Source of the DNA: a virus
Taxonomy: Duplodnaviria > Caudoviricetes
Direction: 5' to 3' (one strand)
DNA: 32,753 nucleotides
Virus record (IMG/VR): IMGVR_UViG_3300017565_000036
Coordinates: 1-32,753 of that record
In this document: one piece after another, positions 62 through 31,534 of the stretch
Layout of the letters: each line of letters opens with the position of its first letter
Numbering within the stretch: the stretch's first letter is position 1
The notes under the pieces: generated by a model
Database searches by the model: none
What the model was told of the DNA's origin: nothing
Seen by the model: only the letters and a program-made list of their open reading frames with translations
Program-made: the position numbers and the translations under genes

Positions 62-78
62 CTAACCAGAGATAGACT
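62..78 (+). promoter_or_regulatory. -10 hexamer TAGACT (73-78) overlapped by palindromic site CTAAC-CAGA-GATAG (62-75); probable leaderless promoter
   Basis: TAnnnT ends 7 nt before ATG 86; no RBS. Confidence 0.55.
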
Positions 79-85
79 TAGTGCC

Positions 86-313
86 ATGACGATCACGACC
101 CCCACCATCCCCGAGCCCGTGCTGGAGGTAGGCCGGGCGTTCGAGAAGCGCCGCGAGATTGCCCAGCGACTCTCCGACCAGGACCGCTACATCGGTGCCG
201 CCGTCCGCACCGCCCGCAAGGCCGGGCACTCGTGGGCGGAGATGGCGCGAGCGGCCAAGGTCAGCGACGTGGCGATCTTGAAGGCCGCGCGCCGCCCGGA
301 GAAGGCGGCATGA
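86..313 (+). CDS. Small helix-turn-helix DNA-binding protein (candidate repressor)
   Basis: 75 aa from ATG 86; C-terminal AVRTARKAGHSWAEMARAAKVSDVAILK is a typical HTH; stop overlaps next ATG (ATGA at 310). Confidence 0.75.
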   Translation: MTITTPTIPEPVLEVGRAFEKRREIAQRLSDQDRYIGAAVRTARKAGHSWAEMARAAKVSDVAILKAARRPEKAA

Positions 314-978: not shown

Positions 979-1715
979 AGGTCGACCTCGCGGCGTTCTG
1001 CCGCGACCACGATGTCGCCGTGGTCGTGGTGTCTCGGGACCGCGCGGCCACGCTGGCGAAGTTCACCGACACGCTCCTCGACGGCTACACGCTGTTCTAC
1101 AGCGGCGAAGGGTACGACGACTACGACTACCGAGCGGTCGAGCGATTCGAGGTTCCACGGGGCCTCCAGGGCCTAAGTGTGGTTCGGAACTACGTCCTCG
1201 ACACCCTCCCCCAGCGCACGGTCGTGTTCTTCGATGACGACGTGAACGCCGTCTACTGGGTGGCGGGCAGACGCTCCGTCCGACTCGACATCGAACGGGT
1301 CAAGTTGGCGATCCTCGACATGGTGGTGCACGCCCACGACCAGGGCTCCACCGCGTTCGGCATGAGCCCCCTCGACCTCCGCAAGTCCAGCCCGCTCGTG
1401 CCGTTCCGGCTCCGTGGCGTGTTCGGGACCGTGCTCGGCGTCGTCGGTCGCGACCTTCGCTTCGATGAGCGCAACGTCCTGAAAACCGACTACGACTTCT
1501 GCCTACAGTCGATGGTCGAGTCCCGCATCGTGCACATGGACATGCGCTACTTCGCATCCTCAGCGAAGGACGAGTTGGCCGGTGGCAACATGGAGTTCCG
1601 AACTCAGGTTCGGCGGAAGCGGGAAATCGACAACCTCATCCGGTGGTGGGGCTCCGACGTGATCGTGCCGAAGGACAACAAGGGCAACGAGAAACTGACG
1701 GTGAAGGTGCCATGA
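975..1715 (+). CDS. GT-A glycosyltransferase, TAGT/GREB1-like
   Basis: GTGA-coupled start; motifs VVSRDRA, GLSVVRNYVLD, VFFDDD, KTDYDFCLQ, GGN. Confidence 0.7.
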   Translation: MKVDLAAFCRDHDVAVVVVSRDRAATLAKFTDTLLDGYTLFYSGEGYDDYDYRAVERFEVPRGLQGLSVVRNYVLDTLPQRTVVFFDDDVNAVYWVAGRRSVRLDIERVKLAILDMVVHAHDQGSTAFGMSPLDLRKSSPLVPFRLRGVFGTVLGVVGRDLRFDERNVLKTDYDFCLQSMVESRIVHMDMRYFASSAKDELAGGNMEFRTQVRRKREIDNLIRWWGSDVIVPKDNKGNEKLTVKVP

Positions 1716-2509
1716 GGGTCTTGCAGGTGGGGTACGGCGTCATCGGGCGCGAGGTGTTCACCGACTACTCGGCGGCGCTCGCCGAGGCCGGTCATCGCTA
1801 CATGGTCACTGACCTGTACAAGGCCGCGCCGACCGGTCACGAGTGGGACGGCCAGCCCATCGACCTCGCCGTGATCCTAGTGAACACCCCGGCCCGCGGC
1901 GGGGGCCTGTTCGACTACCACGACATCCTGACCGCGGTTAGGGAGTACAGCGACCTCGCGTCGTTCATCCTCATCCGCTCGACGGTCGGGCTCGACTTCC
2001 TGAGCACCCCGCTCTACCGGTCGATGGCAGGCAAGATCGGGTTCAGCCCCGAGTTCTACGGCGCGACGAAGTGGTCACGCCGCGGCCTCCTCGACCTCGA
2101 CTTCACGATCTACAGCACCGGCGTGCCCGAGTGGTTCATGGAGTCCGTCGACCCCACGTGGTCGCACCCCGACCGGACGCTCACCGGCACCCCCGCCGAG
2201 GTGATCCTCGCCAAGTTGGCCGAGAATGCGTTCCTGGCGACCAAGGTCACGTTCTTCCACGAACTCGCGCTCGCGGCAGAGCGCCACGGTGCCGACCCCG
2301 AGCGGGTGCGCCAGATCGTCACAGCAGACCCGAGGATCGGCCCGGCGCACTCGCACATGGAGGAGCCCGGCTGGCAGTCGCATTGCTTCGACAAGGACGT
2401 ACCGGCGTACGCCCGCACCGTCGACTCGACCCTCGTCCGAGCGGCGATCCAGTCGAACCGAGCGACCCTGCTCCCGGCGAGAAAGCCCCCGGTCCCGCCC
2501 GAAAACTGA
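1712..2509 (+). CDS. UDP-glucose/GDP-mannose dehydrogenase family protein lacking the C-terminal domain
   Basis: GYGVIG Rossmann motif, VNTP, RST, SPEF, KLAENAFLATKVTFFHEL, DPRIG, and catalytic-Cys motif HCFDKD; 265 aa. Confidence 0.85.
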   Translation: MRVLQVGYGVIGREVFTDYSAALAEAGHRYMVTDLYKAAPTGHEWDGQPIDLAVILVNTPARGGGLFDYHDILTAVREYSDLASFILIRSTVGLDFLSTPLYRSMAGKIGFSPEFYGATKWSRRGLLDLDFTIYSTGVPEWFMESVDPTWSHPDRTLTGTPAEVILAKLAENAFLATKVTFFHELALAAERHGADPERVRQIVTADPRIGPAHSHMEEPGWQSHCFDKDVPAYARTVDSTLVRAAIQSNRATLLPARKPPVPPEN

Positions 2510-2527
2510 TAGGCTATAGGTGTAAGC
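2510..2527 (+). promoter_or_regulatory. 18-bp motif copy 1 (TAGGCTATAGGTGTAAGC)
   Basis: One mismatch to copies at 7451, 8898 and 10798; upstream of RBS and ATG 2555. Confidence 0.85.
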
Positions 2528-2554
2528 CAAACACGACCGAAGGGCACACCTCAC

Positions 2555-4456: not shown

Positions 4457-4830
4457 GCAACCTCACCCGCGGGGACTTCCGACGCTTCGCGCTCGCGATG
4501 GACGTGCTGGCCGAGCCCGACGCACAGGCCCGACTCGCTCAGGCGCAGATGCTCTCCGCCGCCGCAGCCCCCGACGACCTCGTGGCCGTCATCGCGAAGA
4601 TCAGCGCACAGGGCCGAGTCACGATGGAAGCGCTGAACCAGATCGCGAGCATGGGCTACACGCTCCCCCCACGACCCGAGCCCGACCAGCAGACCCGAGA
4701 CGAGGTGGTCGACTCCCTGGTGCGCGGACTCCCCGACCTCCCGCCCGGCGTCGGCGGCGGCATCCACGTGCACCTGGACGACATCAGCATGGCCCTCCGC
4801 CGTGCATACACGCTCGGACGAATGACCTAA
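4453..4830 (+). CDS. Hypothetical protein
   Basis: ATGA overlap; TAA stop lies within palindromic site 4827-4840. Confidence 0.75.
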   Translation: MSNLTRGDFRRFALAMDVLAEPDAQARLAQAQMLSAAAAPDDLVAVIAKISAQGRVTMEALNQIASMGYTLPPRPEPDQQTRDEVVDSLVRGLPDLPPGVGGGIHVHLDDISMALRRAYTLGRMT

Positions 4831-4843
4831 CCGCGGGTAGACT
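4827..4843 (+). promoter_or_regulatory. Palindromic site CTAAC-CGCG-GGTAG overlapping -10 TAGACT (4838-4843)
   Basis: Same geometry as 62-78; intergenic, upstream of the putative terminase small subunit. Confidence 0.55.
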
Positions 4844-5517: not shown

Positions 5518-5807
5518 TGCCCCGGTGCGTGTCGCCGGTGGTTCCCTCGACTCCGTGCACGCTGGGCCGGTCCCCGTTCGGCTTCATCCCGTGGCCTGGC
5601 CCCATCGTGCAGTACGTGTACGAGGGCTTCGCTGTGCCGGTGTGGGCTGACCGAGTGCTCCCCTCCTCGACGCTAACCCCCGTTCGGATGGCGGAGGTGG
5701 AGGCAGGCATCGAGCGCATGGCTGAGCAGATGTCCCGAGCCGCCGGGATGACCAGCGAGAGCATCGCTGACGCTCTCCGCCGGATGGCAGAGCAGGTGCG
5801 TCGATGA
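5517..5807 (+). CDS. Hypothetical protein
   Basis: TGATG-coupled upstream and ATGA-coupled to terminase. Confidence 0.55.
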   Translation: MPRCVSPVVPSTPCTLGRSPFGFIPWPGPIVQYVYEGFAVPVWADRVLPSSTLTPVRMAEVEAGIERMAEQMSRAAGMTSESIADALRRMAEQVRR

Positions 5808-7420
5808 CCGACGTGCTCGACACCCTGCTCGACATCCCCGAGGAGGAGCAAGCCGCCCTCCTCGCCGCCATGCCCGAAGCCGCCGACATCGTGTACCAGC
5901 GGGTCCGACAGGAACTCGCCGAAGCATCCCCGCTCGGCCTGGCACAGGTGATCAACGCCGGGCACCGCGACCTCCCGCACCTCGACTACCTCGACGCCCG
6001 ACTGCTAAGGGCGGTTCGGAAGGTCGAGGCCGGAGAGTCCCAGTTCATCCGCATCAGCATGCCCCCACGATCCGGCAAGTCCGTCACCACGTCCGAGTAC
6101 CTGCCCCTGTGGCTCCTGGCCCGGCACCCCGAGTGGAGAGTCGGCCTCATCTCCCACGCCCCCGGCCTGGCCGCTGGGTGGGGCCGTGCCGTGCGCCGCA
6201 TGATCGAGGAGAACCGCGAGACGCTGGGGCTCGAAGTCGCGCGAGACGCGGGCTCAGTGACCGACTGGGAGACGACCAAGCGCGGCGGCATCTCCAGCCG
6301 ATCCGTCGGACAGTCCATCACCGGTCGAGGGTTCAAGGTCATGATCGTGGACGACGTGGTGAAGGACTACGCCGACGCCGCGAGCGAGACGCGCCGCCAG
6401 CACCTCCGCGACTGGTGGCAGACCACCGCCCGCACCCGACTCGAACCGCCCGGCCTGGTCATCGTCATCGGCACACGCTGGCACGAGGACGACTTCACCG
6501 GCTGGGTAGACACCGCCGGTGACCCGTTCCAGACGATCATCTTCGAGGCCATCGCCACCGAGCACGACGACCTCGGCAGAGCCCCCGGCGATCCCCTGTA
6601 CTCCCCGTTCGTCACCGAGACGCGCGAGGAGGCCCTGGCCCGGTGGTCCCAACTCGAAGTCGCCGTCGGCCCGTACGCATGGGCCGCGCTCTACCAGCAA
6701 GACCCCCAGCCCGCGGGCGGCTCCGTGTTCAAGCGCGACTGGTTCCACTACTGGACCCGCGACCCGAACCTCGTCAGCGATCACACGGTCCTCCTCGTGC
6801 CCGAGACGACGCCCGGCCTCACGTGGCTCGACTCGTGGGATGTTGCTATCGAGGAGACGGAGAGCGCCGACTTCACCGTCGGCCAGCGCTGGGCACGCGA
6901 CCTCGAAGGGCGCATGTTCCTCATCGGCCAGGTGCGACAGCAGACGCAGTTCCCCGACACTCTGGAGACGTTCAGGCAGTGGGCGAAACCGGACTCCCTG
7001 CTCGGCACCGGGCGCAACGTCTACCGCCGGGTCGTGGAGCGTGCGGCGAACGGCTACGCGGTGATCAACACCCTGGAGCGCGAGATTCCCGGCGTCGAGG
7101 GCATCAACCCGAAGGGCTCGAAGGAAGTCCGCGCGAACGCGGTCACGCCCGAGGTCGCCGCGGGGATGGTGCACCTGCCTCACCCGTCCGAGCCCGGCAA
7201 CGAGTGGGTGCACAAGTACCTCGATGAGATGGCGAAGTTCCCGAACGCGAAGAACGACGATCAGGTCGACGCGACGACACAAGCCCTTCTGACGCTCCGG
7301 GTGGGCGCGGGGATGACTCACATCCAGAACCCGGCGGATCGGTCCCCTGGCCTGGCCTCGACGGCTGGGAGGACCATCAGCGCCGCGAGGACGGGTGTCC
7401 GACGGTCAGCGGCAGGCTAA
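5804..7420 (+). CDS. terL: Terminase large subunit
   Basis: Walker A MPPRSGKS, ITGRG, Walker B MIVDD, GTRWHEDD, ALYQQDP, nuclease SWD and NDDQVDA. Confidence 0.97.
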   Translation: MTDVLDTLLDIPEEEQAALLAAMPEAADIVYQRVRQELAEASPLGLAQVINAGHRDLPHLDYLDARLLRAVRKVEAGESQFIRISMPPRSGKSVTTSEYLPLWLLARHPEWRVGLISHAPGLAAGWGRAVRRMIEENRETLGLEVARDAGSVTDWETTKRGGISSRSVGQSITGRGFKVMIVDDVVKDYADAASETRRQHLRDWWQTTARTRLEPPGLVIVIGTRWHEDDFTGWVDTAGDPFQTIIFEAIATEHDDLGRAPGDPLYSPFVTETREEALARWSQLEVAVGPYAWAALYQQDPQPAGGSVFKRDWFHYWTRDPNLVSDHTVLLVPETTPGLTWLDSWDVAIEETESADFTVGQRWARDLEGRMFLIGQVRQQTQFPDTLETFRQWAKPDSLLGTGRNVYRRVVERAANGYAVINTLEREIPGVEGINPKGSKEVRANAVTPEVAAGMVHLPHPSEPGNEWVHKYLDEMAKFPNAKNDDQVDATTQALLTLRVGAGMTHIQNPADRSPGLASTAGRTISAARTGVRRSAAG

Positions 7421-7468
7421 CCCCGATTAGACATGACCCGATCAGTGGGCTAGACTATAGGTGTAAGC
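7417..7468 (+). promoter_or_regulatory. Promoter cassette: palindrome 7417-7430, -35 TAGACA 7428-7433, 17-nt spacer, 18-bp motif 7451-7468
   Basis: Same architecture at 8864 and 15545. Confidence 0.85.
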
Positions 7469-8753: not shown

Positions 8754-8877
8754 GCCCGAGTTCCGCATCGTGTGCGACGGCGGTTGTGGGCGGGTGATGG
8801 TCACCTCTCGACCGACGGTGCTGTGGACGGTGACCACGTGCCCCGAGTGCCTGGCCGCACGCCCTAACTCCGATTAG
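8743..8877 (+). CDS. 44-aa zinc-ribbon-like protein (not in ORF track)
   Basis: RBS GGAGG, GTG start; MDAEPEFRIVCDGGCGRVMVTSRPTVLWTVTTCPECLAARPNSD. Confidence 0.6.
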   Translation: MDAEPEFRIVCDGGCGRVMVTSRPTVLWTVTTCPECLAARPNSD

Positions 8878-8915
8878 ACATCCTGTCATCCGTGGGCTAG
8901 ACTATAGGTGTAAGC
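8864..8915 (+). promoter_or_regulatory. Promoter cassette: palindrome 8864-8877, -35 TAGACA 8875-8880, 17-nt spacer, 18-bp motif 8898-8915
   Basis: Near-identical to 7417-7468. Confidence 0.85.
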
Positions 8916-10774: not shown

Positions 10775-10815
10775 CTAACCGTGGTTCGACCGTCTGCTAG
10801 ACTATAGGTGTAAGC
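10775..10815 (+). promoter_or_regulatory. Promoter cassette: palindrome CTAAC-CGTG-GTTCG 10775-10788 and 18-bp motif 10798-10815
   Basis: Exact TAGACTATAGGTGTAAGC upstream of RBS GAAGGG and ATG 10846. Confidence 0.85.
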
Positions 10816-11423: not shown

Positions 11424-11455
11424 AAGCCCCGAGAGTCCATCGACCCTCGGGGCTT
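11424..11455 (+). terminator. Stem-loop terminator
   Basis: AAGCCCCGAG / CTCGGGGCTT 10-bp stem right after stop 11412. Confidence 0.7.
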
Positions 11456-11469
11456 ACCGCTGTTAGGCT
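11453..11469 (+). promoter_or_regulatory. Palindrome CTTAC-CGCT-GTTAG overlapping -10 TAGGCT (11464-11469)
   Basis: -10 ends 6 nt before GTG 11476. Confidence 0.5.
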
Positions 11470-11475: not shown

Positions 11476-11646
11476 GTGAGCCAAGCCATCCCCCCCATCG
11501 CAGACAACCCGCCCGGATCGTACGCCTGGTGCGGTGACTGCGCCTGGAAAAACGACACCCCACGGTGCGAGGCCATCGGTCGCGCGCACTCCGAGACGTT
11601 CCAGCACGTCGTCCACGTGTTCGAGCCCGAACCCGAGGAGGGCTAA
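11476..11646 (+). CDS. 56-aa CxxC...H...H protein (not in ORF track)
   Basis: MSQAIPPIADNPPGSYAWCGDCAWKNDTPRCEAIGRAHSETFQHVVHVFEPEPEEG; fills the gap exactly. Confidence 0.6.
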   Translation: MSQAIPPIADNPPGSYAWCGDCAWKNDTPRCEAIGRAHSETFQHVVHVFEPEPEEG

Positions 11647-11648
11647 CT

Positions 11649-12089
11649 GTGGATAACCCTGTGAGTAAGGTCGCGGGCTGGGGACTACTCCTCCTCGCCA
11701 CCGCCCGAGCCACCCGCTTCGTCACGTCCGACTTCCTCGGCGAGTGGACAGTCGTCCGACCGGCGAAGCGCTGGGCTCACGACGCTGAGACTCCTCGCCC
11801 TCGAACCCCGGACCCGACACAGCCGCGCCCGCCCGGCATCCTCACCCGCGAGCAGGAGTGGGCACGCATCCGCGAGGAGGACGACCCGAACCCGGATAAC
11901 GGCTGGCGGTCGAAGTTGGTCAAGGGCCTCGACTGCCCGTTCTGTGTCGGGTTCTGGATCGGCGGGGTGATCCTCCTCGGCGAAGCGACCATCGGCAGGA
12001 GCCCTCTCCGGCCTCTCTGGAGGTTCGGAATCGCGATGCTGGGACTGAACTACCTCGTGGGCCACATCTCGTCCAGGATCGACGGATGA
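11649..12089 (+). CDS. DUF1360-like membrane protein
   Basis: RBS GAGGAG; ATARATRFVTSD...LDCPFCVGFW plus hydrophobic segments. Confidence 0.7.
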   Translation: MDNPVSKVAGWGLLLLATARATRFVTSDFLGEWTVVRPAKRWAHDAETPRPRTPDPTQPRPPGILTREQEWARIREEDDPNPDNGWRSKLVKGLDCPFCVGFWIGGVILLGEATIGRSPLRPLWRFGIAMLGLNYLVGHISSRIDG

Positions 12090-12281: not shown

Positions 12282-12311
12282 TTGACCCCGAGCCCTAACC
12301 CCCGCTAGGAT
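12282..12311 (+). promoter_or_regulatory. Sigma70-type promoter TTGACC-N18-TAGGAT with palindrome 12295-12308
   Basis: Near-consensus hexamers in an intergenic gap. Confidence 0.6.
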
Positions 12312-12317: not shown

Positions 12318-12500
12318 AAGGGAACAGCCCAGGCAACCGCTCCTCGGAGCAACTGACTTGTTTGATCACGTGGAATCCTGGCGAGACACGTGAAGCCGCC
12401 GGAGCGGGGTAGGCCACCTCATATGCGCACCGGAGCAGACATTAGGGAACGGCCAGCAGAGCCCCGTCGGAACCACACTCCCGACGGGGCTCTGTAGTTC
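12318..12500 (+). ncRNA. Candidate structured small RNA
   Basis: Lies between promoter and terminator, has no credible ORF, contains nested stems. Confidence 0.35.
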
Positions 12501-12501
12501 T
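12457..12501 (+). terminator. Stem-loop terminator
   Basis: Perfect 14-bp stem CAGAGCCCCGTCGG / CCGACGGGGCTCTG followed by TAGTTCT. Confidence 0.75.
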
Positions 12502-12520
12502 ATCCCCAGTAAGTGCGAGA

Positions 12521-14239
12521 ATGGCCGACATGAGCGCTCCCCGTATCTACGTCCCCATCGAGGGAGGTCCGTCGCCGTCCGACCTCCCGGACAGCGGCGC
12601 GATCATCCCCCGTCAGCCCGACCGCGTGGCCGCCCCACGCCCGAAGCCCATGCAGTCCCTCGTCGCCGCCGCGACACGACTGACCTCCGAGACGCTGGGC
12701 AGGGGCCGCGGACGCCGCGCCTCCGCCGAAGGCTGGCAGGAGGATGCGTGGGAGATGTACGACCTCGTGGGCGAACTCCGGTTCATCACGAACCTCCTCG
12801 CGAACCAGCAGTCCAAGGCCCGGTTCTACGTCGGCACCATCGCCGAGAACCCCGACGACCCGCCCGTGCCGGTCGAGGATGAAGTGCTCATCGACGCGCT
12901 GGAGTCCATCGGTGACGGCCCCTCCGGGCTCTCGCAGTTGGTCCAGCGGCTCGCGGTGAACCTCCAGATTCCCGGCGACTCGTGGCTCGTCGGCATCCCG
13001 AAGGACATGCTTCCCGACGCCGACCCGAACGTCATCGTCACGCGCTCCGCTGACGGCTCCGTGCGGCTGGACGATCTGGTCTGGTACACGATGTCGGTGA
13101 CCGAGGTGTCGTTCCCCTCCCCCGAGGAGGTCGCCATCGTCATGGGCGAGAACGCCCAGCAGGACACGATCAAGGCGTCGCCTGACGACCTGTGGCTCAT
13201 CCGCGTGTGGAAGCCGCACCCCCGCCGGTTCTGGCAGGCCGACTCCGCCACCCGCTCCGCACTCCCCGTGCTCCGCGAACTCGTCGGCCTGACCATGCAC
13301 ATCTCGGCGCAGATCGACTCCCGCCTCGCCGGTGCCGGTGTGCTCCTCGCCCCGGACTCTGCGGCACGTGCGGCGAAGCGAGCGCTCGGCCTCCCCGAGG
13401 ACGGCCCCGACGACCCGTTCACCGACGCGCTGATCAAGGCGATGATGACGCCGATCAGCGACCGGTCGAACGCCAGCGCCTACGTCCCGCTCGTGTGGAC
13501 GATCCCCGACGAGTCCGAGCCCCACTTCCGGTTCATGGACTTCTCGAAGCCGCTCGACGCTCAGGCGAAGGACATGCGCGACGAGGCGATCCGCCGGTAC
13601 GCGCTCTCCGCGGATGCCCCGCCCGACCTCCTGCTCGGCATGGGCGGGATGAACCACTGGGGCATGTGGCTCGTGCAGGAGGACACGGTGCGCGCTCACG
13701 TGGAGCCGCCCCTGGCCCTCGTCTGCGACGCGCTGACCACGCAGTACATCCGCGTGCTCATGAAGGAACTCGGCACGTACACCGACGAGGTGATCGACAA
13801 CACCGTCGTCTGGTACGAGGTCGACCACCTCATCGTCCGCCCGAACCGCGGTCAGGATGCACGCGACGCTCACGCCTCCGGTGCCATCTCCGACCAGGCG
13901 TTCCGCGACGCTCTCGGCTTCTCCGAGGACGACGCCCCGCCGATGGGCCTCGACCCCGCCGTCAGCATGGCCCTCGACATGATCCGCGAGAAGCCCGACC
14001 TCATGGTGGACCCCGGCCTCCCCGAGGTCGTGCGGCAACTCCGCGAGGTGCTGGGCGGCAACGCCACCGGCGACAACGCGGGCGTGGCGACACCGGCAGA
14101 CCCGGCATCCGATGTCGAGGTCGGCGGGTCCACCCCGACCGAATCGAAGCCCGCACCGGCACCGGCAGGGCTCTCCGGTCGCATGCGCGAGTCGATGAGC
14201 CTCAGCGAGTTCGAGTCCATCGTGGCAGGCCAGCAGTGA
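12521..14239 (+). CDS. Portal protein
   Basis: 572 aa; WQEDAWEMYDLVGELRF, RVWKPHP, SRLAGAGVL, NHWGMW as in actinophage portals; synteny. Confidence 0.9.
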   Translation: MADMSAPRIYVPIEGGPSPSDLPDSGAIIPRQPDRVAAPRPKPMQSLVAAATRLTSETLGRGRGRRASAEGWQEDAWEMYDLVGELRFITNLLANQQSKARFYVGTIAENPDDPPVPVEDEVLIDALESIGDGPSGLSQLVQRLAVNLQIPGDSWLVGIPKDMLPDADPNVIVTRSADGSVRLDDLVWYTMSVTEVSFPSPEEVAIVMGENAQQDTIKASPDDLWLIRVWKPHPRRFWQADSATRSALPVLRELVGLTMHISAQIDSRLAGAGVLLAPDSAARAAKRALGLPEDGPDDPFTDALIKAMMTPISDRSNASAYVPLVWTIPDESEPHFRFMDFSKPLDAQAKDMRDEAIRRYALSADAPPDLLLGMGGMNHWGMWLVQEDTVRAHVEPPLALVCDALTTQYIRVLMKELGTYTDEVIDNTVVWYEVDHLIVRPNRGQDARDAHASGAISDQAFRDALGFSEDDAPPMGLDPAVSMALDMIREKPDLMVDPGLPEVVRQLREVLGGNATGDNAGVATPADPASDVEVGGSTPTESKPAPAPAGLSGRMRESMSLSEFESIVAGQQ

Positions 14240-14682: not shown

Positions 14683-14764
14683 CCCCTGGTGGGGTCTGCC
14701 CCAGCCGATCCTCGACGTGATCGAGGACCGGCACCTGTTCGATGAGGAGGACTGCGATGGCTGA
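14675..14764 (+). CDS. Possible 29-aa micro-protein
   Basis: MPNPWWGLPQPILDVIEDRHLFDEEDCDG; 8-bp overlaps at both ends. Confidence 0.4.
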   Translation: MPNPWWGLPQPILDVIEDRHLFDEEDCDG

Positions 14765-16103: not shown

Positions 16104-16133
16104 CTAGCCCCGGTTGGGATCGTTCGGTAGTCT
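16104..16133 (+). promoter_or_regulatory. Degenerate palindrome 16104-16117 and -10 TAGTCT 16128-16133; probable leaderless promoter
   Basis: -10 ends 6 nt before ATG 16140, just after a terminator. Confidence 0.5.
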
Positions 16134-22483: not shown

Positions 22484-23401
22484 ATGGTTGAGCCCACGCT
22501 CACCGACGACGCCGCCGCCATCTCGGCGGCGGCGTTCGTCGTTCCGACCGAGCCACCCGTCACTCAGGCGTGCGGATGGCCGGTCGTGTACCTCGACTGT
22601 GCCGACGACGACTGCGCCGCCTACAGTCAGTTCCCCGAGGACCAGCAGGCCGCGGCTCAGGCATGGTTCGAGGCTCAGGCCATCGACATCCTGTGGAACG
22701 CGACCAACGGCGTGTTCGGCGTCTGCGATGTCGAGATTCGCCCGTGCCGCCAGGGGTGCCAGGGCAACGCCGACTGGTCCTCGACGTTCTGGGGCCGCGG
22801 TCCCGGCTTCGACCGGGGCTTCCCTCGACTCGGGATGGGCGGTGCGGGCACAGGCTCGTTCTACCCGGTCCTCGTCTCCGGCCAGTGGTACAACGTCACG
22901 TGCGGGTGCCTCGGCTCCTGCTCCTGCTCGCCCAGCGGCCCGAACGTCATCTCGCTCCCCGGCCCGGTGGTCGCGGTCACGGAGGTCACCATCGACGGGC
23001 TCACCGTCGACCCGGCGACGTACCGCATCGACCGCGGGCGCTGGCTGATCCGCGACGGCGACGAGCCCTGGCCCGGATGCCAGGACATGAACGTCCCGGC
23101 GGACGCGGTGGGTTCCTTCGTCGTGCGCTACACGCGCGGCATCCAGGTTCCCGCCGGTGGTCAGATCGCGGCGGGGCGGCTCGCATGCGAACTCGCGATG
23201 GCCGCGTGCGGAGACGACGACTGCGCGCTCCCCGACAACTGGCAGACGATCACCCGGCAGGGCCTCACGGTGAACGCCGACCCGAACATGGACGGCACTC
23301 AGGTCACCGGCATCTGGTCGATTGACGAGTGGATCAAGCAGGTGAACCGCCCGAAGTCGTTCGCGTCGGTGCGCTCTGTCGACCTCCCGAACCTCAGATA
23401 G
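22484..23401 (+). CDS. Head-to-tail adaptor
   Basis: LWNATNGVFGVC..EIRPC, LPGPV..V.EVTIDG, WPGCQD, LACEL, ITRQG, TGIWSIDEWI. Confidence 0.8.
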   Translation: MVEPTLTDDAAAISAAAFVVPTEPPVTQACGWPVVYLDCADDDCAAYSQFPEDQQAAAQAWFEAQAIDILWNATNGVFGVCDVEIRPCRQGCQGNADWSSTFWGRGPGFDRGFPRLGMGGAGTGSFYPVLVSGQWYNVTCGCLGSCSCSPSGPNVISLPGPVVAVTEVTIDGLTVDPATYRIDRGRWLIRDGDEPWPGCQDMNVPADAVGSFVVRYTRGIQVPAGGQIAAGRLACELAMAACGDDDCALPDNWQTITRQGLTVNADPNMDGTQVTGIWSIDEWIKQVNRPKSFASVRSVDLPNLR

Positions 23402-24288: not shown

Positions 24289-24315
24289 ACCCGAACCGCC
24301 GTTCGACCGTATGCT
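24286..24315 (+). promoter_or_regulatory. Promoter TAGACC-N18-TATGCT with palindrome CGAAC-CGCC-GTTCG (24292-24305) in the spacer
   Basis: -10 ends 6 nt before ATG 24322. Confidence 0.55.
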
Positions 24316-25135: not shown

Positions 25136-28000
25136 ATGGCGGACAACAACGTCGGCGCGGTGTCCATCACCATCGAAGCCGACGCATCCTCGATCCCCGA
25201 GGATGTCGAGAAGGCGGCACGCGGAGTCTCGTCCGTCGGTGAGCGACTGGCCCGACTGATCAACAAGGGCCTGGCCGACGGCTTCCGTTCGTCCATCTCC
25301 AGCGCCATCGATCCCGTGCGCGAGAAGATCGTCTCGACTCTCCAGTCCGCGGGCTCTCAGGCGGCATCGGCGATGGCACGGGCGCTCGGTCCCGCCGCGG
25401 CCCCATTCAAGAACCTCGTCGCCGGGTTCAACGACACTAAGGCCGCGGCGTCCTCTCTGACCGGCGCGATGGGCACCATCGGAGGGGCGGCGCGATCCGC
25501 CCTCAACCCAGCCATCACCGCCACGCAGAACCTCGTCGCCGGGTGGCGGGACAACCAGGCCGCGGCCTCGTCCTTCACCGGCGCTCTTGGGACCGTGGGT
25601 GGCCTGGCACGGGCCGCATTCAACGGCGCGCAGTCCGCGGTCACCACGTTCGGCTCCGTCGCCAAGAGCGCCTTCGACGGGCTCGTGTCGGTCGCCTCCT
25701 CGGTGTGGGAGAAGATCAAGTCGGGCGCGGCCTCGGCGATGAAGGTCATCGGCTCCACGGTCGCTGACGGACTCGCGGTCGCGGGCAAACTCGCCGGGAC
25801 CGCCATTGCGGGTACGGTCGGCGTCGCGCTGACCAAGGGCTTCTCCCGGCTGGAGTCCATCGACACGGCGACGGCGAAACTCCAGGGCCTCGGGCACAGC
25901 GCGGAGTCGATCACCGGCATCATGCAGTCGGCCACGAACGCGGTCAAGGGCACCGCCTTCGGGCTCGGCGACGCGGCCTCGGCGGCGGCACAGTTCTCGG
26001 CGGCAGGCATCCCCCTGGAGGGCATGGAGCGCTCGCTGAAGGTGCTCTCCTCGACGGCGGCGGTCGCGGGCACCGACCTCGGCACGATGACCTCGATCTT
26101 CGGCAAGGTCGCGGCCACCGGCAAACTGTCGGGCGAGGTGCTGAGCCAACTCTCCGAGCGCGGCATCCCGATCCTCTCCCTGCTCGCCGACCAGTACGGC
26201 GTCACTGCGGAGGAAGCGCAGAAGATGGTGTCGGACGGCAAGGTGTCGTTCGAGGACTTCCAGACTGTGCTCGAAGGGTCGCTCGGCCCCGCCGCCGCGG
26301 CGATGGGTGGCTCGTTCTCGGGCATGCTGACCAACGTCGGTGCGGCGCTCGGACGACTCGGTGCCGCGGCACAGGCTCCGGCGTTCCAGGCGCTCAAAGG
26401 TCTGTTCCCGCCGATCATGTCGGCCATCGACCAACTCACCCCGGTCGTGGCGGCGCTCGCCACTGCCCTCGGAGAGCGCCTGGCTCCCATCGTGGAGAAG
26501 CTGTCGGGGTTCCTCGGCTCCCTCGACCTCTCCGGCTTCGCCGCGTCGCTCACAGGGGCCGGTGGGGGCGCGTCGTCCTTCGTCTCGGCGCTCGGGCCGC
26601 TCCTCCCGGTGCTCGGTGCCGCGGCGGGCATGTTCGGCCCTCTGCTGACGAACCTCCCGGTCGTCGGTGGCCTGTTCGCCGGGCTCACCGGTCCTGTCGG
26701 GCTCGCGGCGGGCGCTCTCCTCGCACTAACCGCGATTAAGCCTGAGACGCTGATGGCGGGCTTCGACTCCATCGCTGGTGCCCTGCCGGGCATCATCAAC
26801 GGGATTGTGGGGGCCATCTCGACTCTCGTGCCCGCGATGGTCAGCCGGATCGCCGAGAACATCCCCGTGTTCGTGAACGGCATCCTGCAACTGGTCACTG
26901 CCGTGATCCCGGCCATCGCGACGGCGATCCCCCAGATCGTAACCGCGGTTACGACGATCATCCCGACGATCATCACCACGCTCCTCGCCGCGATCCCGCA
27001 GATTCTCATGGCGGCGCTGACCCTGTTCCAGGCGATCATCCAGGCGATCATCACCGTCGTCCCTCAGATCATCACCGCGCTCGTCACGATGATCCCGCAA
27101 CTCGCGACCGCGCTCCTCTCTGCGCTCCCGCTGATCATCACTGCCGCCCTCGAACTGTTCATGGGTATCGTGCAGGGCGTCATCACAGCGATCCCGGCCA
27201 TCATCTCCGCGGTGCTCGAACTGCTCCCGGTCCTCCTGGAGACGGTCGTCGGGATGATCCCCGACCTGATCAACGCCGCGCTCGAACTGTTCCTCGGGAT
27301 CATCATGGGCCTCGCGGAGGCGATTCCCTCGATCATCTCGGCGCTCCTCGCGCTCCTGCCGCAACTGATCAGCACTCTCATCGGCATGATCCCGACCCTC
27401 ATTCAGGGCGCGGTGTCGCTGTTCACCGGCATCGTCCAGGCCCTCCCCAAGGTGATCCCCCAGATCATCTCGGCCCTCATCGGGCTCGCGCCGGTCATGG
27501 TGAACGCCCTGATCCAACTCGTGCCGCAACTGATCCAGGCTGGTATCGACCTCATCGGCGGGCTCGTCAACGGCCTCCTGTCGGCGGCGGGACAGGTCGG
27601 CGAAGTCCTCCTCGGGATCGCTCAGGATGCCGTCGGTGACTTCCTGTCGTTCCTCGGCATCCACTCCCCCTCTCGACTGATGTACGGGGCCGGTAAGGAC
27701 ACGATGCAGGGGTACATCAACGCCCTGCACGACATGAGCGGCGAGGCGTCCGACGCGATGACCGAAGCACTCACCCCGCCACCCGCACCGGGCCTGGAGC
27801 CGAGCGCCGCGGGCCTCGGTCGAGTCGGCGCGACGACCCCCGGTGCCGCGGGAACCGGCACGAGCCTCCTAACCCCCACGCCCGGCGGTAGCGGTACATC
27901 CGTCGTCGTGCAGGAGGGTGCGGTCAAGGTCGAAGGCCCCGACCCGTACAAGGCGGCTATCGAGGTCGGCGACCGCCTGGCTGAAAGGATCGCCGCATGA
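25136..28000 (+). CDS. Tape measure protein
   Basis: 954 aa, Ala/Gly-rich; GFSRLESID, VKGTAFGLGDAA, QLSERGIP; Pro-periodic hydrophobic repeats; GIHSPSR. Confidence 0.95.
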   Translation: MADNNVGAVSITIEADASSIPEDVEKAARGVSSVGERLARLINKGLADGFRSSISSAIDPVREKIVSTLQSAGSQAASAMARALGPAAAPFKNLVAGFNDTKAAASSLTGAMGTIGGAARSALNPAITATQNLVAGWRDNQAAASSFTGALGTVGGLARAAFNGAQSAVTTFGSVAKSAFDGLVSVASSVWEKIKSGAASAMKVIGSTVADGLAVAGKLAGTAIAGTVGVALTKGFSRLESIDTATAKLQGLGHSAESITGIMQSATNAVKGTAFGLGDAASAAAQFSAAGIPLEGMERSLKVLSSTAAVAGTDLGTMTSIFGKVAATGKLSGEVLSQLSERGIPILSLLADQYGVTAEEAQKMVSDGKVSFEDFQTVLEGSLGPAAAAMGGSFSGMLTNVGAALGRLGAAAQAPAFQALKGLFPPIMSAIDQLTPVVAALATALGERLAPIVEKLSGFLGSLDLSGFAASLTGAGGGASSFVSALGPLLPVLGAAAGMFGPLLTNLPVVGGLFAGLTGPVGLAAGALLALTAIKPETLMAGFDSIAGALPGIINGIVGAISTLVPAMVSRIAENIPVFVNGILQLVTAVIPAIATAIPQIVTAVTTIIPTIITTLLAAIPQILMAALTLFQAIIQAIITVVPQIITALVTMIPQLATALLSALPLIITAALELFMGIVQGVITAIPAIISAVLELLPVLLETVVGMIPDLINAALELFLGIIMGLAEAIPSIISALLALLPQLISTLIGMIPTLIQGAVSLFTGIVQALPKVIPQIISALIGLAPVMVNALIQLVPQLIQAGIDLIGGLVNGLLSAAGQVGEVLLGIAQDAVGDFLSFLGIHSPSRLMYGAGKDTMQGYINALHDMSGEASDAMTEALTPPPAPGLEPSAAGLGRVGATTPGAAGTGTSLLTPTPGGSGTSVVVQEGAVKVEGPDPYKAAIEVGDRLAERIAA

Positions 28001-29334
28001 GCATCTACGAGGGATACCTGTCGTTCGGCGGGAACGAAATCGTCAACAACTCCCGCACGTGGGGCATCAGCAGGACCGCTCAGCCGTGCCCGATGTTCTG
28101 GCTCAAAGGCGATGTCTGCGCGACGATGAACGGTGCGCTGTTCGAGGCCGCGCCGTACGACTACGACTCGATCACCCTGACACCCTGGTACGACCAGGAC
28201 GTGCCGCAGAGCGGCGACTTCTTCGGTTTCTTCGCCTACTCGATCACCGAGGCGATGGACTCGACGCGCACGGTGTCCCGCACGGAGAGCATCACCGATG
28301 GCGGCGTGCTCGGACGGACCCGGAAGGCGACCAAGACGATGCGGGTCCGGGGTCTGCTCATGGGTCGTGGACGCCTGGCAATCGAATACGGTCAGGCGTG
28401 GCTCTCCGCCGCTGTCGACCCGAATGCGTGCGGTCAGCACGGCACCGAGTGCGGCCTGACGGACCTCCAGTGGTTCGCCGACTGCCCGCCTGATCGCGGC
28501 ACGGTCGTCGTTCCGCCGGAAGACCCGGAAGACCCTCCGACTCAGCGCCCGCAGACCGACGAGGAGTATGCGGCGACGGTGCAGGGCTACGTCCGGTACA
28601 TGCACGATGTCGCGGCCATCTCCGGCCCGATCATCACGAACACGCTCCAGGCGGGCGACTTCATGGCCTACGAGGTCGAGATGGTGTTCGCCGCGGAGCG
28701 CCCGTGGGTGTACGGAGCGACCCGAGATGTCGACCTTCCCCCGACGACTCCTCTGATCATTCAGGACATCCCGTACAACCTCGTGCCGTCGCCGAGCGCC
28801 GAACTCGCCTCCGGCGACGTGGTGGCGTCCCGCAACCTCTCCACGAACCCGAGCGTGGAGACGAACGCGACGGACTGGTCCGTGCAGGCCGGTGCTCCGA
28901 TCCTTGTGGCGAACGTCGCCGGTGCGCGCTCGACAGCGCTCGCCGCGGTGGGTGCCGCCTCGTACCGGGCACTGTTCACTGCGCCGAGCGCCGGTGTCAA
29001 TGGCTGGTTCGGGGCTCAGCAGACGGTCCCGATCACGGATGCCCTCGAACGGCACTCCATCAACATCTGGTCAGCGCTCATCCCTCTCGCCGGGGCCTCG
29101 GTGCCGTTGCAGATCGACGTGGTGGCGATCTGGCAGAACGCGGCCAGCGCGACTCTCCGCACTGACGCTCTCGGGACGATCCCGAACGCCGGTGGTGTCG
29201 TGTCCGCGGCCCGCCTTCTCCCACCTGTCGGGGCCACCAAGGTCATCGTCCGCTCGATGGGCCGACTGACCTCCTGGGCCAACGGGTCCACAGTCCAACT
29301 GTTCGCCGACGCGCTCGCCGTCACGGTGCCCTGA
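27997..29334 (+). CDS. Minor tail protein (distal-tail-like N-terminus plus carbohydrate-binding-like domain)
   Basis: Directly after TMP; YLSFGGNEIVNNSRT, PWYD, EMVFAAERPWVY; NLSTNPSVETNATDW. Confidence 0.8.
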   Translation: MSIYEGYLSFGGNEIVNNSRTWGISRTAQPCPMFWLKGDVCATMNGALFEAAPYDYDSITLTPWYDQDVPQSGDFFGFFAYSITEAMDSTRTVSRTESITDGGVLGRTRKATKTMRVRGLLMGRGRLAIEYGQAWLSAAVDPNACGQHGTECGLTDLQWFADCPPDRGTVVVPPEDPEDPPTQRPQTDEEYAATVQGYVRYMHDVAAISGPIITNTLQAGDFMAYEVEMVFAAERPWVYGATRDVDLPPTTPLIIQDIPYNLVPSPSAELASGDVVASRNLSTNPSVETNATDWSVQAGAPILVANVAGARSTALAAVGAASYRALFTAPSAGVNGWFGAQQTVPITDALERHSINIWSALIPLAGASVPLQIDVVAIWQNAASATLRTDALGTIPNAGGVVSAARLLPPVGATKVIVRSMGRLTSWANGSTVQLFADALAVTVP

Positions 29335-29347
29335 GAGAAGGTGGATC

Positions 29348-31534
29348 ATGGCATACGACGCCTCAATCAGCGGGTCTTACTCCGGTCGCTCCTCGTACTA
29401 CTCGTTCCTCTACGTGCGGCGCGACCTGACCGACGTTCCCAACAACCGGTCGTCCTACGCTTGGGCCTACTATGCTCGCGGCCCGGCAGGTGTCTCCTAC
29501 GTTCTCGATGCGTTCGCATACGGCGTCAACGTCGGTGGTCAGGGGTTCAGCGGCTCCCACAACCTCGACTTCCGAGGCACCTCCGAGGTCGTGCTCGGGT
29601 CTGGGACGACGAACTGGTTCGGCCACGACGGCAACGGCTACCTGTCCATCGTCATCGACGCTTGGCACGGCCCCGCGTCGATCTTCGGCACGTCCGACCC
29701 GCCCTCCCTGTGGTTCGCGACTGACCGCATTGCTCAGCGCCCATCAACTCCGGGCACGCCTACGCTCAGCAACATCACGACGAACAGCGTGCAGGTCACG
29801 TGGGCGATCCCGGACAATCGCGGCGCGGCAATCGACCAGATGCTCCTCCGCTACTCCACGAACCCGAACGTGGAGGCCGGGCCGTACACCGACCTCACGA
29901 ACGGCGGAAACGTCACGACTCGCACGGTTACCGGCCTGACCCCCGGTGTGACCTACTACTTCGTCGTGTACGCGCACAACTCGGTCGGTTACTCGAACCG
30001 GTCGGGCACGGCGTCGGCGCAGACGATCCCGGCGACCCCTCCGCCCTTCACGGTCGAGCCGTCCCTGTCGGGCACGCAGGCCGTGGTGTCGTTGACCCCA
30101 CCCTCGGGATCGACGGGCGTCACTGGGTACGAGGTGCGCTACCGGCCCGTGGGCGGCGCGGAGACGACGGTCACCGGACTCTCCCCGATCACGGTCACCG
30201 GACTGACCCCCGGCGTCTCGTACGAGTGGTCGGCGCGCGCGATGTTCGGCACAACGCCGAGCCCGTGGTCGGACTGGGTGACGTACTTCCAGCCGAACCC
30301 GAACACTAACCCCGGTCAGTATTTCGACGGCTCGACGGCGGACACCGCCGACATCGACTTCCAGTGGACCGGCACGGTCAACAACTCCACGTCGCGTGCT
30401 GTCGGCAAGAAGGTTACCGGCTGGACCGACTTCGCCACCGCGGCGGCAGTCTCCGGTGGCACCGGCGCTCAGTACCGCGTCACCGGCGCGGTGGGCCTCT
30501 ACCCCGAGGGACAGCCCAGTGGCTCATTCGCATGTCGGTACGTGTTCTTCCGCGACGCGACCGCGGCGGGATTCCGCGCGGGCACCGAGAACACTGCGGC
30601 GGGTCGCGCCGAAGTCAGCGAAGGCGGCGTGTACTTCGGCTCGATCTACGCCCGCCCCTCGCGCTCTCAGCGCCTCGCGGCTGTCATCACCCTGATCCCC
30701 TCCGGTGGTGGCGCAGTCCAGCGCGTCGTCGGCGCGAGCCAGGTCGTGCCCGCGGGGACCAGCGTGCGGCTCTCAGTGAGCGGCATGGCCTCCTTCGACG
30801 GCTGGGCCACGGTCGAGGCTGTGGATGTCGCTGGAGCAGGCTGGAGCCTGTGGCAGGGCGGCGAGACGATCACGGTGGACGCCGCGATGATCACCGTCGG
30901 CTCGCAGTTCCCCTACTTCGATGGCTCGACACCCGACACCGGCCAGTTCGACTACGCCTGGCTGGGGGCCACGAATGCGAGCGTCAGCACGCGCACCACT
31001 CTCGATGTGGACGTGGACGACCCGCTCGCTGACCCCGACTGCCCGCCTCCCCCGACCGCTCCTGGCCCGCCTCCCATCGAGGACGACTGCATTACCGAGG
31101 TCGGCGTCTGGCGACGCTACTGGGTGCAGATCAACCAGCCCGAGGTCGCGCAGTGGATCGCGACGATCCCGACCCTCACCCTGTCGACCGGCGCACAGGC
31201 CGCTCGTGAGGTGCGCATCCGGTACTACGAGAACCCGGAGAACACCCCGCCGAGCGCATTCACGCCCGGCGACTTCGTAGCCGAGCAGATCGTCCGCTAC
31301 ATGCCTCCGAACACGGTGCTCAACCTCGACGGGGTGAGCGAGCGCGCTCGGGCGAGCGTCGCCGGTGGCGACTGGATCGCGGCTGACCACCTCGTCTACG
31401 GCACGGGTGGAGCCCCCGCGACCTGGCCCCTCCTGGAGTGCGGTCTAGGCTTCCTGGTGTCTCTCGATGTGCCGCTGGATGCAACCCTCGGCAATCTCTC
31501 CTCCGACCTCGCGCTCACCCGAAGGATGCTCTGA
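29348..31534 (+). CDS. Minor tail protein with two fibronectin type III-like domains
   Basis: VTGLTPGVTYYFVVYAHNSVG and VTGLTPGVSYEWSARA; repeated YFDGST...W.G..N.S.S. Confidence 0.8.
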   Translation: MAYDASISGSYSGRSSYYSFLYVRRDLTDVPNNRSSYAWAYYARGPAGVSYVLDAFAYGVNVGGQGFSGSHNLDFRGTSEVVLGSGTTNWFGHDGNGYLSIVIDAWHGPASIFGTSDPPSLWFATDRIAQRPSTPGTPTLSNITTNSVQVTWAIPDNRGAAIDQMLLRYSTNPNVEAGPYTDLTNGGNVTTRTVTGLTPGVTYYFVVYAHNSVGYSNRSGTASAQTIPATPPPFTVEPSLSGTQAVVSLTPPSGSTGVTGYEVRYRPVGGAETTVTGLSPITVTGLTPGVSYEWSARAMFGTTPSPWSDWVTYFQPNPNTNPGQYFDGSTADTADIDFQWTGTVNNSTSRAVGKKVTGWTDFATAAAVSGGTGAQYRVTGAVGLYPEGQPSGSFACRYVFFRDATAAGFRAGTENTAAGRAEVSEGGVYFGSIYARPSRSQRLAAVITLIPSGGGAVQRVVGASQVVPAGTSVRLSVSGMASFDGWATVEAVDVAGAGWSLWQGGETITVDAAMITVGSQFPYFDGSTPDTGQFDYAWLGATNASVSTRTTLDVDVDDPLADPDCPPPPTAPGPPPIEDDCITEVGVWRRYWVQINQPEVAQWIATIPTLTLSTGAQAAREVRIRYYENPENTPPSAFTPGDFVAEQIVRYMPPNTVLNLDGVSERARASVAGGDWIAADHLVYGTGGAPATWPLLECGLGFLVSLDVPLDATLGNLSSDLALTRRML

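Follow-up and report, generated by a model that had tools for sequence, protein, structure and literature searches.

Dispersed arrays of repeated sites have been described in several groups of actinobacteriophages. In cluster A phages, one protein (L5 gp71 or the TipsytheTRex repressor) recognizes 20-30 sites located at and away from promoters; these sites are asymmetric, orientation-dependent 13-mers, the repressor is a monomeric two-domain protein of 183 amino acids, and the phages are temperate (PMC9283540). Mycobacteriophages of cluster O carry more than 30 copies per genome of a 17-bp dyad, TGTTCGG-NNN-CCGAACA, for which the passages describing it name no binder (PMC4351075), and cluster EG phages carry an 18-bp inverted repeat, GATCAACC-NN-GGTTGATC (PMC7302621). 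Here, we describe an array of a 14-bp palindrome, CTAACC-NN-GGTTAG, in a 32.8-kb virus record (IMG/VR IMGVR_UViG_3300017565_000036, positions 1 to 32,753; hereafter the window, meaning the whole stretch analyzed) and its relatives, together with a helix-turn-helix (HTH) protein of 75 amino acids that is its likely binder.

The window has a G+C content of 68%, and all of its called genes lie on the plus strand, including genes for HTH, ParB-N, glycosyltransferase, UDP-glucose dehydrogenase, terminase, portal, protease, capsid and tail proteins. Given that its capsid region is 91% identical to that of Microbacterium phage Jayden, we assign the window to a cluster EC-type Microbacterium phage. 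EC phages are described as lytic, forming clear plaques and lacking a repressor and an integrase (PMC7302621, PMC9224216, PMC12614000); the annotation of Jayden contains no integrase. Their genomes are reported to encode one annotated 'RNA polymerase sigma factor' and to carry 12 copies of an unexplained, asymmetric 18-bp motif, TAGACTATAGGTGTAAGC (PMC7302621). The relevant passages of this and three later EC papers assign no role to the motif, and those of the later papers mention no other repeat (PMC9224216, PMC12614000, PMC12776033). A literature search covering open-access text, and Fig. S10 of PMC7302621 by its legend, returned no description of the palindrome in EC or EI phages; the legend refers only to the 18-bp motif and to a 30-bp EI repeat, which could overlap part of the unit formed by palindrome and promoter.

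In layout, the cluster O dyads are the nearest system: both arrays comprise more than 30 dyads in a non-temperate actinophage, about a third of them within genes, and a dimeric binder is predicted. However, the cluster O arms are invariant, differ in sequence and lie mostly away from promoters (PMC4351075), whereas the EC arms are degenerate, most EC sites at gene boundaries overlap a predicted -10 or -35 element, and a putative cognate gene is linked to the array. The EC array works like an operator/stoperator array in that one protein would serve numerous sites at and off promoters, yet it is not a cluster A system: its site is a symmetric 14-mer, the candidate protein contains a single HTH, and the phages form clear plaques and lack an integrase. 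The analogy with L5 stoperators drawn in a preliminary description of the window captures the layout only, because L5 sites lack symmetry and are occupied by a monomer, and the phages are temperate. The EG repeat shares the AACC-NN-GGTT core and its spacing with the EC palindrome, while the outer bases differ.

Results

The palindrome array

A sequence logo of 169 unique EC sites yields CTAACC-NN-GGTTAG as the consensus, with A common at position 10 and a GC-rich spacer (23% AT). At arm position 2, 107 of 133 unique EC sites have T and 25 have G, which makes G/C a variant that is tolerated but not on a par with T. The site had previously been written as C(T/G)AAC-N4-GTT(A/C)G; the dyad and its spacing of 4 stand, whereas T and G are not equivalent and the consensus above fits better. 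All 21 14-mers listed at that time are present at their coordinates. Those at 14679 and 16104 are weak, and sites at 12500 and 13842 had been overlooked (Table 1); three further weak candidates are located at 8249, 12772 and 24591.

When CTAAC-Nk-GTTAG was searched in the window with k from 0 to 11, 11 matches were obtained at k=4 and none or one at any other k. A de novo spaced-dyad search likewise placed CTAAC-N4-GTTAG first (11 seen versus 0.1 expected), and the same dyad ranked top in all 11 complete EC and EI genomes examined. Allowing up to one mismatch, CTAAC-N4-RTTAG produced 23 strand matches at 12 places, compared to a mean of 0.17 and a maximum of 3 in 100 dinucleotide shuffles, and a position weight matrix (PWM) built from 66 non-intragenic sites in nine other genomes detected 21 window sites of at least 10 bits (mean 0.94, maximum 6 in 100 third-order Markov simulations). 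Fourteen of the 16 CTAA words in the window start a listed site, and five of the six TAA stop codons among its 47 called genes (4830, 7420, 11646, 14682, 15548) form a left arm, exactly those pointed out before. Chance and codon bias as sources of the array are ruled out by the shuffle, Markov and synonymous-codon controls.

The array is conserved among relatives. Nine EC genomes have 18-25 copies with at most one mismatch, the two EI genomes have 12 and 15, and Megan, Dulem virus 38 and Hendrix have none; spacers other than 4 yield 0-3 copies. Each complete EC genome contains 28-37 sites of at least 11 bits; with the threshold set to 10 bits, some two thirds to three quarters of the sites lie at gene boundaries. 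Gaps between sites are irregular (coefficient of variation, CV, 0.75-1.25), with medians of 1.0-1.4 kb and largest gaps of 5.4-10.4 kb.

Promoter geometry and the 18-bp motif

The palindrome shares its phages and intergenic gaps with the published 18-bp motif. Among 99 motif copies in ten EC sequences, 88 have a palindrome 23-35 bp upstream (33-35 bp in 73, 23-25 bp in 15), and 11 have none. We refer to sites 34-35 bp upstream of the motif as class A; here, the right arm provides the TAG of a -35 element positioned 17-18 bp before TAGACT, and this element is TAGACA in 32 of 41 unique EC cases. In the unit starting at 7417, the -10 hexamer TAGACT (7451-7456) is the start of the published motif. 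An extended -10 TG accompanies all 26 promoters of the 18-bp motif that have no class A site, versus 2 of the 73 class A promoters, and Megan and Nicole72 contain TTGCC[CA]-17/18-TA.CGT-like promoters without a dyad (read by eye). Because of this -35/extended -10 pattern and the Megan-type promoters, the 18-bp motif, published as asymmetric in EC passages that do not mention the palindrome, reads as the -10 element, discriminator and start site of a predicted SigA-type promoter whose -35 the palindrome overlaps. As in such promoters, the hexamers are 17-18 bp apart or the -10 is extended. A generic promoter scan of the window returned 4 matches (0.8 in shuffles), all at sites and three of them class A.

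At class B sites, the right arm serves as the TAG of a TAGnnT -10. An ATG or GTG follows 6 or 8 bases later in 26 of 54 unique EC cases (leaderless) and is absent from the next 12 bases in 21. Class B covers the HTH gene, the terminase small subunit and head-tail genes, and still other sites lie in the promoter spacer (offset 17-18). Overall, the -10 hexamer begins 11, 17-18, 23-25 or 33-35 bp after the site start, and given these many site positions inside one polymerase footprint, occlusion fits better than activation. In one relative (G008), a second site is placed on the -10 at two promoters and in the spacer at two, and Kozie has one such pair; no pairs of sites within 60 bp occur in any EC genome. 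Promoter overlap had been recognized earlier and is borne out at 12 of the 13 boundary sites, which have TANNNT 11-34 bases after the site start (that of 11643 is not conserved). A window-specific 11-bp deletion at 10775 was ruled out, as the 23-bp offset is the common state (7 genomes). Median scores are graded: 20.2 bits for class A, 17.1 for the HTH gene's own promoter, 16.1 for other upstream sites, 13.3 for intragenic sites and 12.6 for structural-gene promoters.

Selection on intragenic sites

Intragenic sites were scored with a PWM trained without them, and synonymous-codon shuffles served as control. Gene interiors of the window hold 9 sites of at least 10 bits, compared to 0.65 in shuffles (maximum 4; 0/100), and all ten EC sequences contain 6-11 versus 0.65-1.36 (each 0/100). 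An excess also exists in G012 (6 versus 0.46, 0/200), L064 (2 versus 0.06, 0/200) and G008 (2 versus 0.2, 2/200). The same test revealed none in G007, L071, G009 and Nicole72, and MementoMori, Kozie and Megan have one intragenic site each, with no excess at 10 bits.

Selection is also visible in codon usage. In the window, CTA or GTA with a suitable partner three codons on is followed there by NTT in 5/9 cases versus 13/380 overall (p = 2e-6); no rare-codon pairing was found at codon distances 1, 2, 4 and 5. The pairing reaches p <= 0.006 in all ten EC sequences and p = 1 in EI phages and Megan. In codon alignments, the terminase site at 6005 retains CTA and GTT in 10/10 genomes although CTA makes up ~1% of Leu codons, whereas the tape-measure site at 26726, present in 8/10, has silently lost both arms in 2/10; another tape-measure site occurs in 7/10 EC genomes and not in the window. 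Both arms are thus gained or lost together at silent positions, with the caveat that short recombination tracts could shift both arms at once. Taken together, the codon-shuffle excess, rare-codon pairing and codon alignments uphold the earlier suggestion of DNA-level selection within genes.

Intragenic sites are found in terminase, portal, tape measure, minor tail and glycosyl genes and are optional across lineages; in the ten EC sequences, the protease, capsid, gp29 and major tail genes contain none of at least 9 bits. This distribution would fit damping of low-copy products. Internal or antisense promoters do not account for these sites, almost none of which have TANNNT at the usual offsets.

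The 75-aa HTH protein as candidate binder

The gene at 86-313 encodes an HTH protein orthologous to Jayden gp82. Many EC and EI records list it as a sigma factor, and the labels used in relatives are 'RNA polymerase sigma factor' and 'DNA binding protein'. Its association with the palindrome makes it the likely binder, whereas the preliminary description had named no protein. A site is located 23-24 bp before its start codon in 12/12 EC and EI genomes, and in 16/16 loci of another set (11 of them distinct and new, 47-97% identity) the gene is preceded by a site scoring 12 bits or more (15 from an upstream search and L073 from the site list, with a strong site ~50 bp upstream in L079). In homologues down to ~50% identity, the site spans the -10 of the gene's own predicted leaderless promoter. 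As background, no more than 2-5 of the 47-95 gene starts in a genome are preceded by such a site at 20-30 bp. The promoter layout is the same in relatives, and protein identity is 89-97% within EC and 59-61% in EI. Recognition-helix residues S60, D61, V62, A63, K66, A67, R69 and R70 are invariant in 25/25 close homologues, and thus the helix does not vary among phages with a large array. In Megan, Nicole72 and G009, the helix is altered to SEVAAYNA and only three variant sites exist: before the HTH gene, before the gp35 orthologue and at the EC gp61 site position. The site before the gp35 orthologue (24292 in the window) is common to EC, EI and Megan-type phages.

Gene and site are also absent together. 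Profile and site searches found neither in Hendrix, Dulem virus 38 or the EG phage OneinaGillian. Among 37 further records, eight capsid relatives are at least 90% complete, of which seven have neither gene nor site and G009 has both. As to fragments, G043 holds the HTH gene and sites, and G010, G026 and G029 have 1-2 sites, those of G026 and G029 below controls. Weak phrog_686 matches appeared in Dulem virus 38, Hendrix and G004; the first two were not confirmed by the specific profile. Among the non-structural families tested, gp50, gp51, gp53, gp65, gp67 and gp82 are common to EC, EI, G007 and G008. The sites are not targets of the neighboring glycosyltransferase module, as EI, G007 and G008 have the array without gp84-86.

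The protein does not show the two-region build of a sigma factor. It had no Pfam match at E 0.05, sigma families included, and in place of region 2 plus region 4 its 75 residues comprise one long helix and an HTH (model with a predicted local distance difference test score, pLDDT, of 90.9; helices 10-45, of 36 residues, 50-57 and 61-68). In a VIA fold comparison, sigma-4 domains (Z 5.0; root-mean-square deviation, rmsd, 8-10) were tied with DeoR (Z 5.6, rmsd 1.5, 47 aligned residues) and KorB HTHs; the best Z of 5.6 denotes a generic HTH, and the ClpC2 structure 8ADA is not among the matches listed. A Foldseek search with the model had no match at E 0.001.

Other genomes provide further observations. 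G008 carries a Phd-like antitoxin and RelE-like toxin pair (L083 13939-14495) and 37 sites in 25 kb. A 13-kb contig in a bacterial genome (L159, G050:C76) combines five sites with an SSB homologue and an HTH match that is weak (17 bits); it could be a prophage or else a phage contig that was binned along with that genome. Dulem virus 38 (W09; 1719-8729 and 42792) contains eight copies of another 14-bp dyad, GTATG-N4-CATAC, clustering near its weak phrog_686 match at 2878-3051.

A distant, probable link to ClpC2

In a PDB search with the HTH profile, residues 4-72 of ClpC2 (8ADA) matched at E 2.5e-4, ranking behind three designed repeat proteins whose matches are compositional, and hhalign aligned the profile to ClpC2 N-terminal domains over 44 columns with a probability of 98. 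The host-domain profile recovered the phage HTH in all 18 genomes or loci that hold it (14,010 segments) and gave no match on reversed sequences, a test biased by the choice of its five host sequences as best matches of the phage profile. A distant HTH profile weakly matches 174 of 401 chromosomes of the class of genome G044, mostly in frames of ~240-260 aa and, among the matches listed, at 25-37 bits (86-120 for phage members); the one host protein checked (L157) carries Clp_N. Just upstream, each of the five host loci has one or two [TA]CAAC-N5-GTTG[AT] dyads, with spacer 5 only.

ClpC2 forms dimers through its N-terminal domain, joined by a D46-R57 bridge, and acts on CGTCAAC-n5-GTTGACG as the repressor of its own leaderless promoter (PMC10030653). 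The bridge aligns to D33 and R44 of the phage protein, which are kept in 25/25 and 24/25 close homologues, and only in 18/23 and 19/23 of a wider set. A relative whose behavior has been tested is therefore a dimeric autorepressor acting on an AAC...GTT dyad. The phage protein would share with ClpC2 the N-terminal dimerization/HTH region, the aligned bridge and a dyad over its own, predicted leaderless promoter. In contrast, ClpC2 has GTCAAC arms, spacer 5, one or two own-promoter sites and a ligand-sensing Clp repeat domain, whereas the phage protein corresponds to the N-terminal part alone and goes with CTAAC arms, spacer 4 and ~30 sites.

The 13 EG repeats of OneinaGillian (W11) have ClpC2-type arms (TCAAC/GTTGA) at spacer 4. 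Since neither a ClpC2-like nor a gp82-like protein was detected in this genome, the EG repeat may be bound by a host protein or by some more distant HTH.

Sites and neighboring features of the window

Table 1. Palindromic sites, predicted promoters and the HTH gene in the window (site 7417-7430 and comparable ranges refer to window positions; 10/10 and similar fractions refer to EC genomes unless stated).
Feature	Position	Strand	Details
Predicted leaderless SigA-type promoter of HTH gene	48..78	+	TTGCCA 48-53, 19 bp, TAGACT 73-78, ATG 86
Site over HTH-gene -10, class B, putative autoregulatory operator	62..75		15.5 bits
75-aa helix + HTH protein, Jayden gp82 orthologue	86..313	+	phrog_686
Intragenic site, glycosyltransferase gene	1173..1186		both arms in window only (1/10), peptide unchanged
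Intragenic site, glycosyltransferase gene	1599..1612		kept 10/10
Intragenic site, UDP-glucose dehydrogenase gene	1928..1941		kept 10/10
18-bp motif copy without palindrome, predicted extended -10 promoter; internal control	2510..2527	+	TG-n-TAGGCT
Class B site ahead of terminase small subunit, left arm formed by TAA stop	4827..4840		over -10 TAGACT
Intragenic site, small gene before terminase large subunit	5673..5686
Intragenic site, terminase large subunit	6005..6018		rare codons CTA, GTT kept 10/10
Class A unit	7417..7468	+	site 7417-7430, -35 TAGACA 7428-7433, 17 bp, -10 TAGACT 7451-7456
Class A unit	8864..8915	+	site 8864-8877, -35 TAGACA 8875-8880, -10 TAGACT 8898-8903
Site 23 bp before extended -10 18-bp motif copy	10775..10815	+	-10 at 10798-10803
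Class B site of predicted leaderless gene (GTG 11476)	11453..11466		over -10 TAGGCT
Site on stop/start junction 11646/11649	11643..11656		kept 10/10; no conserved -10
Class B site ~220 bp upstream of portal	12295..12308		over -10 TAGGAT (TTGACC 18 bp before)
Site in spacer of predicted leaderless portal promoter	12500..12513		TG-C-GAGAAT; 12.1 bits
Intragenic site, portal	13842..13855		11.2 bits; 10/10, largely explained by conserved codons
Weak site on TAA stop	14679..14692		9.6 bits; no -10 found
Class A unit	15545..15596	+	site 15545-15558, -35 TAGACA 15556-15561, -10 TAGACT 15579-15584
Weak site 24 bp before TAGTCT of predicted leaderless protease gene	16104..16117		9.3 bits
Class B site, TAG stop as right arm, before 23411	23388..23401		-10 TAGGGT
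Site in predicted leaderless promoter spacer, gp35 orthologue before tape measure	24292..24305		TATGCT
Intragenic site, tape measure	26726..26739		both arms 8/10, both lost together 2/10
Intragenic site, tape measure	26939..26952		GTAAC-GTTAC; 6/10
Intragenic site, minor tail gene	30306..30319		4/4 aligned orthologues

Site 16104 reaches 9 bits or more in the window and Jayden only, and the site ~210-250 bp upstream of portal is kept in 9/10 genomes. Between this site-covered promoter (TTGACC-18-TAGGAT) and portal, ~200 bases without a called gene (12309-12500) possibly encode a small RNA or small open reading frame (ORF). In Jayden (L001), the right arms of two conserved sites (39120 and 46030) run into the ribosome-binding word AGGA, 16-20 bp before a start codon and with no -10; one of these positions is retained in Megan-type phages.

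Other features of the window concern its gene modules. Downstream of the HTH gene (310-2509) follow ParB-N, a glycosyltransferase (weak TAGT match, E 0.01) and UDP-glucose dehydrogenase, and in G007 a ParB-N gene adjoins a tRNA-guanine transglycosylase-like gene instead; ParB-N in the window looks tied to DNA modification rather than partition. A hairpin followed by TACAGT and a ~60-nt leader precedes the capsid gene (17940-18061), is near-identical in ten EC sequences and is a possible structured leader, with no Rfam match and no RNA family at gathering threshold. The minor tail genes at 27997-32748 are 35-51% identical to those of Jayden (~90% in the rest of the window) and group with M. foliorum-type EC phages in the alignment, which we read as a swapped tail module.

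Discussion

We favor, with moderate confidence, a reading in which the palindrome is the operator of the phage's 75-aa HTH protein, which would bind as a dimer and repress the predicted host SigA-type promoters that its sites overlap, including its own. The sequences show the array and its conservation, the selection on silent positions, the site geometry and the linkage of gene and sites; we infer binding, repression, their timing and, by sequence likeness, dimerization. In this scheme, host polymerase would first fire the strong TAGACA-17/18 bp-TAGACT promoters and the leaderless HTH gene. The HTH protein, made early, would cap its own level through the site across its -10. Given the graded site scores, the strongest sites (class A) would shut early promoters, while the weaker ones might merely damp structural-gene promoters. 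The intragenic copies, which we take to be selected binding sites without a promoter, could equally act as partial roadblocks, as auxiliary (looping) operators or as a titration sink.

Several points weigh against this reading. The ten EC genomes are relatives and no independent samples, and the PWM score is a mere proxy for affinity. Sites also cover structural-gene promoters, which a lytic phage must express. The gp67 and gp53 families are, like the HTH gene, present in all array-bearing genomes whose sequence covers that region. G012 has six sites and no HTH match, although this 57% fragment probably breaks off before reaching the gene, and in L073 the HTH gene appears frameshifted (~9978-10132, deletion) while 13 sites remain in the locus, so that it is either a natural mutant or an assembly error. 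The likeness to the ClpC2 N-terminal dimerization domain is distant, and the ClpC2 operator has a spacer of 5 bp versus 4 in the phage site. Part of the DNA contact of ClpC2 has been assigned to its C-terminal domain, with arginines there implicated (Taylor et al., PMC10030653), and its N-terminal domain alone is reported to give no repression (2026 preprint, bioRxiv 10.64898/2026.06.30.735635). Finally, class A -35 elements of EI and distant phages are poor (TAGGCG, TAGGAA, TAGGTA), yet both the ATTAG arm and a spacing of 34-35 bp are retained.

The same protein and sites could instead silence the whole genome, as an immunity-like repressor, in superinfection exclusion or in an integrase-free carrier state, with the intragenic copies as symmetric stoperators; this appears unlikely to us. 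Negative autoregulation is typical of immunity repressors, and early and structural promoters are covered alike. About 30 sites per genome are also what cluster A repressors use (PMC9283540), and G008 carries the Phd/RelE-like pair. However, EC phages are described as clear-plaque phages without an integrase or recognized repressor (PMC7302621, PMC9224216, PMC12614000), and a GTDB scan revealed no HTH relative (0/203 pattern matches) and, in 50 of 64 parts scanned, no close capsid relative (2 matches at 25-33%). Neither an integrase nor a ParA family was found among the 108 of 124 G007 and G008 ORFs scanned. Equally doubtful is the related proposal that a host ClpC2-like N-terminal domain was turned into a stand-alone master repressor, its operator spacer changing from 5 to 4, and silences the whole genome without an integrase, its sites having spread to every promoter and, through silent codon choice, into genes as symmetric stoperators.

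We also regard it as rather improbable that the protein is a dual regulator, acting as a class II-like activator at about -40 (class A) and as a repressor across the -10, with early and middle genes switched on and late genes held off. The class A center lies near -39.5/-40.5, and one helical turn separates the offsets 23-25 from 33-35. Activation is favored chiefly by the weak -35 of EI and distant phages with its kept spacing and arm, as expected of an activator site. On the other hand, the EC -35 is near consensus and continues past the dyad (ACA), an extended -10 is used where a class A site is missing (one such promoter has no site in any of 10 genomes), the homologous Megan promoters have no dyad, and double-site promoters place an equally strong site on the -10.

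That the sites are bound by another protein, be it phage gp67 (winged HTH), phage gp53 or a factor of the host (LexA or ClpC2, for instance), seems very unlikely. The genes for gp67 and gp53 do accompany the array. However, the putative recognition helix of gp67 reads SPASVRTYH in EC and TVKSAYTTH in EI although the site is the same, and neither gene has a consistent upstream site of its own (four gp67 rows left out). The LexA SOS box, TCGAAC-N4-GTTCGA (PMC3381160), shares the AAC-N4-GTT core, and CGAAC/GTTCG arms are tolerated in EC sites; yet EC sites prefer T over G at arm position 2, lack the T/A flanks (flanking T in 8/133) and have a GC-rich spacer, and compared to this box, which may differ from that of Microbacterium, 10 of 133 unique sites are within one mismatch and 99 have at least four. 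The IdeR/DtxR box has its half-sites in the everted order GGTTAG-n-CTAACC, which gave 0-1 matches at spacings 0-5 and up to two mismatches in the window and Jayden, and the ClpC2-type TCAAC-N5-GTTGA occurs only 0-4 times per EC genome. These motif tests reject host LexA, IdeR and ClpC2 as main binder. The exact site is found in 19 of 121 sampled chromosomes of G044's class, at 1-3 copies each and no more often than in the reversed control, and this sample, which may not include Microbacterium, shows no signal of a host regulon.

An architectural protein that tiles the genome to organize, protect or prepare it for packaging, with promoter overlap as a secondary effect, would account for selected intragenic sites without a promoter, for their recurrence in G012, L064 and G008 and for the median gap of 1.0-1.4 kb, but is the most improbable option, and the genome organizer once suggested is not retained, given the irregular spacing (CV 0.75-1.25, gaps up to 10 kb), the location of most EC sites at gene boundaries and the presence of the array without intragenic excess in EI, G007, L071 and, as variant sites, in Megan-type phages.

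Repeat arrays in lytic actinophages (clusters O, EG, EC and EI) have been reported since 2015 without a binder or function. The EC/EI palindrome array is real, selected, unreported in the open-access literature searched, and accompanied by a likely cognate repressor. For EC, there is now a candidate protein and a predicted operator, along with Megan-type phages and their three sites as a natural contrast and a host relative with a solved dimer structure, which together make for a hypothesis that is open to simple, direct tests. Our reading would give the published 18-bp motif a role as a SigA-type promoter, and it challenges the 'sigma factor' and 'no repressor' annotations of EC and EI phages. 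With both arms appearing or vanishing at silent codons, the intragenic sites offer a clear example of regulatory code embedded in phage genes. Given that its site is rare in actinomycete chromosomes, we believe that the putative 75-aa repressor could also serve as a genetic tool for Microbacterium.

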